From positions 1,411,426 to 1,475,425 of the forward strand of contig MU057073.1 of assembly GCA_013239625.1 (NCBI GenBank): a stretch of DNA of 64,000 nt, given 5' to 3'. The notes below the pieces were generated by a model that did no database searches, had not been told where the DNA came from, and saw only the letters and a list, made by a program, of their open reading frames with translations. The DNA comes from Lama guanicoe (lineage: Eukaryota). Numbering within the stretch: the stretch's first letter is position 1; every line of letters starts with the position of its first letter. Position numbers and translations under genes: made by a program. Of this stretch, positions 30,101-51,100 are shown piece by piece.

Positions 30101-32708
30101 TTCTGTCAGCAGTACTCCAACCTGAACCTCAGGTTGAACTGGGCAACCTGTATTTCTGTCAGCCTCCCCCAGAAGGAAACAGGAACGTGACACGCCACCT
30201 CCTGCCCGAACAAGCCCCTCCGTCCCCTAGAAAAGGCGGCAACAGGCGAGGGCTCACCCCGTCACAGAGGTGACCACTGCCCAGAGGAGGACAGGACCTG
30301 CTGTCCAGGTCACTGCCCAGAAGGAGTGGTCCTGTGGGTGTGACCTCTGCCTCTGGTGGGGGTGAAGTCTGTTGTCGAGGTGCTGGGGCCCCCACCTGGC
30401 CAGGCCCAGTGGGCACCCAGCCCGGACCAGCCCATCAGACAACAGCGCGACTGGCCTGGCTGAGCCTCTGGGGCGACACACCTGGAAGCTGCTCCCAAGT
30501 CACATGCCCTCCCCGTGGACAGGTAGTGGGGGCAGTAGCCCTCGGGGAGGGGGCAGGAGGCAGGCAGGCACAGGGGAAGCGGTCAGCTGAGGTCGCTGTT
30601 GGGTGGGGGGCCAAGTAAGGAAGGCAGGGCCCTCAGAGGGGAGATGGGACACAGAGGACAGGCCAGTGCACCGAAAGTAAGTCTGTGAAGCTCCCCTCCC
30701 CGGGACCTCCCCCAGCTTAAGAACTGTTACGAAAAGAATTTCAAGTAAAGAATAAGATTATAAACTTTTAATTTTAAAAAATTTTACAATAAAATACATG
30801 ATCACACATAGCACGCAGAAGAACACGACGAGCAGTGGCCCAGGCAGCAGCCCCTCCTGGGAGGCAGCAGCGCCGGCCCAGCCCGCCGCTAGGGGCCAGC
30901 GTGGCTGTGGCTTTGCGAGCGAGTGCGTCCTGACAGCAGTGTGGCTGCTGGTATGATGGTGCGCAGGGTGCGGGGACACAGGAGGAGACGCTTAGTTAGG
31001 GGTGTGGGCTCCCCGCCCCAGGCCCTCCAGCCTCGGCGACCATTCCCGGCTGTCACAGGGCCGCTCTGGACGCAGTGGGCAGCTCTGTCCTGGGTTTTCC
31101 AGGGCAGGGCGCAGCTTCACTGCAAAGGAAGGCAGTGGGTCAGGGCCAGGCCTGCCAAGTCCCGGTAGTGCCATTTCCAAGTTTTGTTCTGGAAACGGCT
31201 TGTAGGGAGGTGGCCCCCACCCTCCTGCTGATGTCTGCCTAGAAGTGGGGGGGGCTGCTAGGGGAGGAGGGAGGTGCAGACCTCAGCCTGCTGCTTCTGC
31301 ACAAACGAGCCCCCCCAGGGCCTCGGTCCCCCTTCCACCTCCTGGGGCCCAGGGTCTCCGCACTGGGCCCCTCTCGGAGTCCCAGCCCTGCAAGTGGGCA
31401 TGGCTACCACTGGCCTGGCCCCTGCTGTCCCTGGCCGCCCGCCTGCGTGGCTGGGGGCACTCACATTAAGGCTGGCGTCCTCCAGGCCACTGCTGCCGCT
31501 GTCGTTCTCCACAGAGAGAGGCTCCACTGGAGACGCCCTGCAGATTTAAGCACAGAACTGAACTTTATTCCAGGTCAAGGAAGCAGGCACTCAACAGCCC
31601 CTAAGAGTGCTGGATGGGGTGGCCAGTGTCTGGCTGCTGGGCACCTGAGGGCCCTCTGCCCTGCCCCCTGGGGAGCCCAGCCATTCTGCCCCCCAGCTAG
31701 GCCTGGGCTCCCTGAGAACAGCACTTAGGGCGTTGGTAGATGGGCAGGGCTGGCCCAGGGATGCCTGCAGCCCCCACCCCGGACCCTGCTTGGTGTCCTA
31801 GGATACAGCCCAGGTCGTCTCAGTGGGCATGACCCCGGATGCAGGACGGACTCCGGTCTCCATGTGTCCCTCCGCTGGGTGGGGGTGACAGGCCAGCCCT
31901 GGCAATGCGGCTGAGTCCAGCTGGTCAGACCCAGTCACTGATGGCCCCAAGGGGGGGCGGGGTCAGACTGCCAGGGACTTGGGACATGAGGATGGGAGGG
32001 GCCCTCTGGCGCTGGCAGTGACAGCCACCTCCCCTGGCCTCCAGGACACCCTGCTGGGCTGCATGAGGAAGAGGGTGCCAGTGCTGCTGTCGCGGGGCAT
32101 GGCCCGCCTGGTGGTCGTGGACTCTGTGGCAGCCCCGTTCCGCTGTGAGTTTGACGGTGCGGCTTCGGCCCACAGGGCCCAGTGTCTGCAAGTGCTGGGA
32201 GCTGAGCTGCGCCGGCTGAGCTGCACCTTCCGGAGCCCCATACTGTGCATTAACCAGGTGGGCCGGCCAACACCCCCTCCACCCCGCCCCGTGCTCAGGA
32301 TGGGGGTTTGGGGCAGAGCCAGCAGAGCTGACCCTGATCCGGCCCTTCCAGGTGACGGAGGCCACAGAGGAGCAGGGAGCGGCTGCCGGGCTGCCTGGGT
32401 GAGTGGGGCTGCCCACGGGCAGGAAGGAGGGCAGCATCGGGGCCTCCGTGGTCTCGAAGGTAACAGTGGGGCCTGTTTTCTGTCTCAGTGCCAGGGGAGA
32501 GCGGGTGTGTCCAGCCCTTGGGATAACCTGGTCCAACCAGCTCCTGATGCGGCTGATGGTCGACCGTCAGCGCCCTGAAGAGGCTGTCCTGGCCCCACCC
32601 AGCCGCACCTTGAGGGTGGTCTTCGCCCCCCACCTGCCGCCCTCGTCCTGTTCCTACACAGTCACCTCCATGGGTGTGCGAGGGACGCCTGGGACCAAGT
32701 CCTGCTGA
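24169..32708 (+). CDS. XRCC3: DNA repair protein XRCC3 (RAD51 paralog), complete, 346 aa
   Basis: Exons: 24169-24223, 25349-25486, 25776-25988, 29858-30012, 32045-32257, 32352-32398, 32489-32708 (TGA); 1041 nt; GT/AG and phase-consistent. Start [18 protein letters not shown] with strong Kozak (ataATGG); Walker A GCSSAGKT; Walker B LVVVD; end GTPGTKSC. Confidence 0.97.
24408..24427 (+). repeat. (GT)10 microsatellite
   Basis: Direct read. Confidence 0.9.
24600..24860 (-). mobile_element. Old L1 fragment (L1M-type)
   Basis: T-rich, ttttatccagtctgaccatccttgtcttttag...gtaattgctgat, typical of antisense L1M 3' regions. Confidence 0.45.
28240..29410 (-). mobile_element. L1 (L1MB/L1MA-like) 3' fragment with ORF2 remnant
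   Basis: Starts with an antisense L1 3' end (ttttaaaattgagacataattcacataccataaaattc...). Minus-strand peptide [19 protein letters not shown] is an ORF2 C-terminal remnant. Confidence 0.9.
30750..31119 (-). other. KLC1: KLC1 distal terminal exon (begins with TGA; 3' UTR; ATTAAA at 30767-30772), inside an XRCC3 intron
   Basis: Acceptor ccttcctttgcag|TGA. AT-rich 3' end tattttattgtaaaattttttaaaATTAAAagtttata. End position approximate. Confidence 0.75.
31465..31537 (-). CDS. KLC1: KLC1 73-nt alternative exon read in two frames ([23 protein letters not shown] or [24 protein letters not shown])
   Basis: tctgcag acceptor, GTGAGT donor. Both translations resemble recalled human KLC1 tails (GVSGRASFCGKRQQQQWPGRRHR; ASLAEPLFVENDSSSSGLEDATAN). 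Confidence 0.9.

Positions 32709-51100: not shown

Follow-up and report, generated by a model that had tools for sequence, protein, structure and literature searches.

Distal KLC1 exons inside an intron of XRCC3 in the guanaco and their probable role as placental C-terminal tails

The distal end of the KLC1 gene of the guanaco (Lama guanicoe) is made of two exons that lie inside an intron of the convergent gene XRCC3. We consider it likely, with a probability of roughly 0.7, that these exons were exonised in a placental ancestor and were kept for the new C-terminal tails that they give to KLC1, XRCC3 being affected only slightly. This reading is made likely by a spliced junction seen in three of four RNA runs, by the null exon overlap with XRCC3, by the placement of the stop codons, by tails that among the sampled proteins are found only in placental mammals, by the enrichment of the distal end in radial glia and by the low rates of a toy estimate of polymerase encounters. 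Opposite haplotype effects in BXD mice, the expression association of rs861539 with both genes and the higher toy rates reached at 10 read-through events/h may speak against it. All positions given here refer to the window, i.e., the whole stretch of 64,000 nucleotides that was analysed, and the features are collected in Table 1.

Organization of the locus

The names KLC1 and XRCC3, already given by a first-pass annotation, hold by the matches of exons to PDB KLC1 (E 7.8e-27) and PDB XRCC3 (E 3.5e-29). The two genes lie tail to tail, KLC1 on the minus strand and XRCC3 on the plus strand, and the overlap of about 3.4 kb that had been described across the XRCC3 3′ UTR and last three coding exons is present in the sequence. 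XRCC3 has seven plus-strand coding exons (24169–32708) that form an open frame of 346 residues; the last three are all contained in a single KLC1 intron, and the junction 32398>32489 was present in run X9. On the other strand, the KLC1 exons after the TPR domain all have AG/GT ends, and the choice of donor in the post-TPR exon (48221 or 48194) gives tails without or with nine extra residues, respectively.

We take the neighbouring genes of the window to be ZFYVE21 and PPP1R13B, to judge from motifs seen by eye and from the mouse gene order. This order is Klc1, Xrcc3, Zfyve21 in rows of the supplement of PMC7056908. The PPP1R13B-like (plus strand) and ZFYVE21-like (minus strand) genes have candidate hexamers back to back at 10891/10894 (within 10851–10899), the same design as that of the hexamers at 34130 (XRCC3, plus strand) and 34140 (KLC1, minus strand). 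A short SINE-like insertion, with a T-rich head and a tRNA-like tail recognized by eye, was found in a KLC1 intron at 50120–50245; it may be akin to a camelid SINE.

A convergent overlapping pair consists of protein-coding genes that lie on different strands and face each other with their 3′ ends, a transcript of one entering the span of the other. KLC1 and XRCC3 are such a pair, a familiar type of layout in genes already described. According to the literature, the convergent class is the most frequent among opposite-strand overlaps and results for the most part from 3′-end change, and about one quarter of human protein-coding genes overlap a neighbouring gene. The layout is that of an ordinary gene-dense region, and the four genes suggested to make up one chained transcription unit are read in this way.

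Table 1. Features of the KLC1–XRCC3 region in the window.
Feature	Position	Strand	Remarks
CpG island, taken as shared XRCC3/ZFYVE21 promoter	21000–22400		CpG obs/exp 0.71–1.16; putative, by sequence
XRCC3 intron containing both distal KLC1 exons	30013–32044	+	
Distal KLC1 last exon, opening with the acidic-frame stop codon	30750–31119	-	ATTAAA 30767–30772; 3′ end approximate
KLC1 GT-AG intron, 345 nt	31120–31464	-	Spliced reads/contigs
Dual-frame KLC1 exon, 73 nt	31465–31537	-	RNA cover and junction
Last three XRCC3 coding exons	32045–32257, 32352–32398, 32489–32708 (span 32045–32708)	+	Open frame, PDB match
XRCC3 poly(A) signal region	34130–34157	+	Candidate; AATAAA 34130, ATTAAA 34152; U-poor downstream flank
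KLC1 ancient last exon (21-residue tail), presumed 2.8-kb 3′ UTR	34120–36997	-	Acceptor and frame; end at AATAAA 34140–34145 inferred
KLC1 ancient tail exon, 67 nt	38045–38111	-	17–21/22 identical in mammals, bird, frog, gar
KLC1 amphipathic-helix exon	41603–41733	-	AG/GT ends; in frame after TPR domain
KLC1 proximal last exon, adding one residue before its stop (KLC1A type)	42650–43224	-	AATAAA 42670–42675; 3′ end approximate
KLC1 short-tail exon, 51 nt (10-residue basic tail, KLC1B type)	43903–43953	-	Tail also in P0147, P0160 and others
Intronic AATAAA, candidate KLC1 site	46248–46253	-	0 UGUA upstream; outside read-covered region
KLC1 post-TPR exon, two donors (48221, 48194)	48194–48355	-	AG/GT ends, open frame, PDB KLC1 E 7.8e-27

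The distal KLC1 exons

RNA read cover was obtained for the region 30500–36900 from four of the 24 listed runs (X2, X9, X21 and X22), X2 and X9 being unstranded contigs from a related organism. The junction 31465>31119, which joins the two distal exons, was observed in three of the four. The spliced contigs were about 7–8 times deeper than the unspliced ones (920 vs. 126 in X2, 102 vs. 13 in X9), X21 contributed four raw reads with two starts, and X22 none. The end at 30767 agrees with two single-cell runs (7 and 10 reads) that have minus-strand reads in the bins 30714–31141 and none in 30500–30713; their first mates were all on the minus strand, located in 30714–31141 and 31356–31569, and no cleavage site was called. 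The loose end of these reads looks like the template-switch oligo of a 5′ kit, which would make them sense reads of a minus-strand RNA; it is on this adapter that the reading of the first mates as the RNA strand rests. Among the ends within 30500–36900 only that at 30767 has RNA support, and the lack of reads over 32640–36900, XRCC3 UTR included, is a hole that proves nothing. Both distal KLC1 exons lie wholly in an XRCC3 intron and the last XRCC3 exons lie in a KLC1 intron, which leaves 0 nt in common between the mature RNAs.

Two frames are used in the 73-nt exon. Joined to the helix exon, it encodes an acidic tail of 24 residues that stops at the first codon of the last exon; joined to the post-TPR exon or the 67-nt exon, it encodes a basic tail of 23 residues. 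Both frames stop at the last junction, the basic one 1 nt before it and the acidic one 3 nt after it. Under the established 50-nt rule, neither distal frame would be a target of nonsense-mediated decay. With its two frames and the position of their stops, the exon is a neat example of coding exonisation. A run-on KLC1 transcript could have acquired a poly(A) signal as well as a splice acceptor and donor within the XRCC3 intron, the position of the stops would have spared both frames nonsense-mediated decay, and selection would then have acted mainly on the acidic frame, the one that follows the membrane-binding helix. A search of the guanaco genome itself with 30700–31600 (common words skipped) returned the window only and thus gives no sign of a multicopy element. 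By eye, the acidic tail has many serines with acidic residues after them, and looks like a cluster of kinase sites beside the cationic helix; a 2026 preprint deals with phosphorylation gating of the KLC2 tail.

Poly(A) signals and the choice of KLC1 tails

Four KLC1 poly(A) regions had been proposed, and their minus-strand hexamers are all present (AATAAA at 46248, 42670 and 34140, ATTAAA at 30767). They are 4 of the 22 canonical minus-strand hexamers found in 30000–48400, so that the presence of a hexamer is not enough to define a site. The excess of hexamers over dinucleotide shuffles (22 vs. 7.3 expected on the minus strand, 22 vs. 12.4 on the plus strand) was rejected as a sign of site use because A/T tracts lift both strands above the null. 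With the four runs and the region 30500–36900 as scope, the proposal stands with RNA support for 30767, while 46248 is unsupported, and its use would require read-through of the exon at 48194. The site at 42670 has the best flanks among 12 scored candidates (2 UGUA, 12 GU/UG). Its distance to the XRCC3 end (8540 nt) matches the 8569 nt that separate a Klc1 array probe from the Xrcc3 end in mouse. Flanks and spacing support this site indirectly. The hexamer at 34140 is the first canonical one downstream of the ancient last exon. The claim that each site goes with its own set of C-terminal peptides fails at 30767, a site used by proteins in at least two frames, some with the helix and some without it.

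The peptide of the amphipathic-helix exon is one residue off the KLC1D/E helix peptide of Anton et al. (10.1101/2021.01.20.427326), as far as that text was available. The exon is 100% identical to that of Camelus ferus KLC1, and 39–42 of its 43 residues are identical in nine vertebrate proteins; the value for P0055 (11/43) was left out, its helix being outside the 200 residues compared. It had been argued that any isoform containing this exon must be transcribed towards or into XRCC3. We found the coupling to be loose both ways. Reading through the helix-exon donor meets an in-frame stop at 41601–41599 and seven canonical hexamers follow between 41600 and 34200, so that a helix isoform need not reach XRCC3. 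Conversely, helix-less proteins (P0153 from gibbon, 573 aa, P0137 and P0138) carry the basic distal tail, and read-through thus does not imply the helix. Some helix proteins end in the ancient tail, and such isoforms would only touch XRCC3. As many as 28 of the 120 protein matches end at the helix-exon donor stop. Many of these are likely prediction artefacts, but annotated zebrafish KLC1 (P0092) is among them, so that a helix-terminal isoform may be real, to judge from the protein sequences. In favor of the proposed coupling, human NP_001123579.1 (UniProt isoform D, studied as a long form) ends in the acidic tail, and we assume that KLC1E does so as well.

The last codon of the short-tail exon is an ATG, located 15 nt past the exon's own stop and in frame with the helix exon. 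Splicing 43903–43953 to 41603–41733 and then to 31465–31537 gives a downstream ORF of 69 residues made up of the helix and the acidic tail, and P0121 and P0124, proteins from public assemblies, have exactly this form. In such an mRNA the main stop is 222 nt before the last junction, which makes it a likely decay target; the 69-residue ORF may stand for a helix-only micropeptide or for no more than a poison route.

Age and spread of the distal tails

The tails were compared in 182 annotated proteins (120 of 417 matches plus 62 cluster members), grouped by hand from their source names, of which 31 without species assignment were left out. Distal tails were found in 0 of the 93 non-mammalian KLC proteins, although 37 of them, from rays to birds, have the ancient tail, which as judged from these sequences dates back to cartilaginous fish. 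Among the 58 mammalian proteins, the acidic tail was recognized by pattern in 15, plus two by eye (manatee and lemur), and the basic tail in seven, plus one by eye (guinea pig). Placental mammals have the distal peptides, which are also present in human RefSeq, and primate proteins of 573 aa terminate with the basic tail. The set is without marsupials or monotremes, so that the exon can be described as at least placental-wide.

By sequence identity, the acidic frame is the better kept of the two, with 16–21 of 24 residues identical in eight mammals, compared with 12–15 of 23 in four for the basic frame. A direct protein search with the acidic tail gave seven matches at E<1e-5 among the 13 listed, the six named ones being all from rodents or primates. 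The same search with the basic tail, a weak one, gave nothing at E<=1 among seven candidates. Metagenome contigs were scanned twice, for mammalian cDNA or for DNA of the host, with 0 loci as the outcome.

Does KLC1 read-through affect XRCC3?

By geometry, the choice of KLC1 3′ end sets how far the KLC1 polymerase runs antisense into XRCC3. The first-pass annotation went on to propose that isoform switching tunes XRCC3 in cis. Its geometrical part stands, and 3′-end choice is regulated by cell type in mouse and human brain, whereas the tuning is conjectural: the distal exons share no nucleotide with XRCC3 exons, they end far from its promoter, their coupling to the helix is not obligatory and their use is highest in progenitors. 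We know of no inverse expression or perturbation result for KLC1/XRCC3.

Read-through that represses or alters XRCC3 in cis, by collision or by slowed elongation over its last exons, so that isoform switching tunes homologous recombination, is in our opinion unlikely. The 3.4-kb overlap that it demands is real. KLC1 and XRCC3 junctions were both found in bulk run X9, with the distal KLC1 junction deeper than that of XRCC3 (102 vs. 31.6), a poor measure because these are unstranded contigs. Unspliced contigs in the same run (31509–32517) extend over two small XRCC3 introns at a depth of about 50 vs. about 17–32 for the spliced ones. They could be taken as altered splicing, i.e., XRCC3 intron retention, but may equally be KLC1 pre-mRNA or DNA. 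By sequence, about 8.7 kb separate the end of the distal transcript from the XRCC3 promoter region, which this transcript would not cross. With assumed rates, a toy estimate puts the share of XRCC3 polymerases that encounter a KLC1 polymerase at 1–22% for a speed of 3 kb/min and at as much as 39% for 1.5 kb/min, in both cases with no more than 3 read-through events per allele and hour; at 10 events/h the share is 32–81%. The estimate does not decide for or against a collision effect.

In the mouse cortex, radial glia are enriched for the distal Klc1 last exon, with neurons using the proximal site, and the authors link poly(A) use to proliferation (PMC10691540). In human brain one KLC1 3′ UTR site is described as neuron-specific, with the gene level constant (PMC13692583, in part). 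Homologous recombination is confined to S/G2 (PMC13538139, in part), so that read-through would be highest where XRCC3 is likely needed most. Enrichment in dividing progenitors is the wrong direction for simple repression of a homologous recombination gene. Convergent pairs mostly have associated expression (76% vs. 57% in controls), the sign of the association not being given in the part of the source available.

Some genetic data speak for a cis effect. The B haplotype of BXD mice goes with higher Klc1 and the D haplotype with higher Xrcc3 (PMC7056908). However, eight linked genes are cis-regulated at this locus (same source), and the Klc1 probe, 8569 nt before the Xrcc3 end, is located at the proximal UTR and does not measure read-through. 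The human variant rs861539, within the overlap, acts as an eQTL not only for XRCC3 and KLC1 but for many genes around them (PMC10272963). It is similarly doubtful that the placental dual-frame exon made the KLC1 poly(A) switch a cis rheostat on the RAD51 paralogue XRCC3, with variants that shift KLC1 3′ ends (the B6 vs. DBA/2 haplotypes in mouse, the 14q32.33 risk alleles in human) acting via read-through and not via an enhancer.

Slightly less probable again is that the two genes simply co-vary, proliferation driving distal KLC1 ends and XRCC3 together, or that the influence is reversed, with XRCC3 polymerases that run past a weak poly(A) site shifting the choice between 34140 and 30767. The enrichment in radial glia and the link of poly(A) use to proliferation agree with the former. 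The U-poor downstream flank of the XRCC3 signal, back to back with the KLC1 hexamer, agrees with the latter, but XRCC3 looks the weaker transcript. Pairing of KLC1 and XRCC3 mRNAs, which would mask sites or make double-stranded RNA, is very improbable, since, although the pre-mRNAs are complementary across the whole overlap and about 36 nt would be mutual if 34130 and 34140 were both used, these 36 nt span poly(A) signals only, the distal isoforms lack the shared complementary exons of duplex-forming cis-natural antisense pairs and 0 Rfam matches were found in 29000–36900. Under the preferred reading, exonisation for new KLC1 tails, the cost to XRCC3 would be occasional head-on meetings of polymerases in the last few kb, with neither promoter occlusion nor mRNA duplex.

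Were a cis effect true, it would provide a mechanism for a gene-dense disease locus in which KLC1 and XRCC3 are inseparable, and would link a motor cargo tail to DNA repair. Even without it, unstranded RNA-seq, knockouts of the last XRCC3 exons and variants like rs861539 would touch both genes; reads in the XRCC3 intron may be KLC1 exons, and reads in XRCC3 exons may be KLC1 pre-mRNA.

Comparison with known systems

Regulatory antisense transcription through a promoter is represented by Airn–Igf2r and by RME2–IME4 of yeast. The likeness of these systems to KLC1/XRCC3 is that an antisense polymerase crosses part of the partner gene in cis; the difference is that the KLC1 transcript stops about 8.7 kb before the XRCC3 promoter region and is a protein-coding mRNA. 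In the mostly open-access literature that pairs KLC1 with XRCC3, judged from listings and passages, we found no proposal of cis regulation through read-through.

The KLC1 tails and helix are already known (10.1101/2021.01.20.427326), as is the distal tail in human RefSeq. The same exons and helix peptide of the C-terminal isoforms A–O, the helix-bearing D and E among them, were found here, with differences that amount to species-level substitutions; the available part of that text is silent on the location of the last exon and on XRCC3. With the convergent overlapping pairs described in PMC6746723 and PMC2335118, both available in part, KLC1/XRCC3 shares opposite strands, overlapping 3′ ends and an overlap set by the choice of 3′ end. 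It differs from them in that its overlap is mutually intronic, with coding exons of both genes, and, unlike most convergent overlaps, has been kept across placentals.
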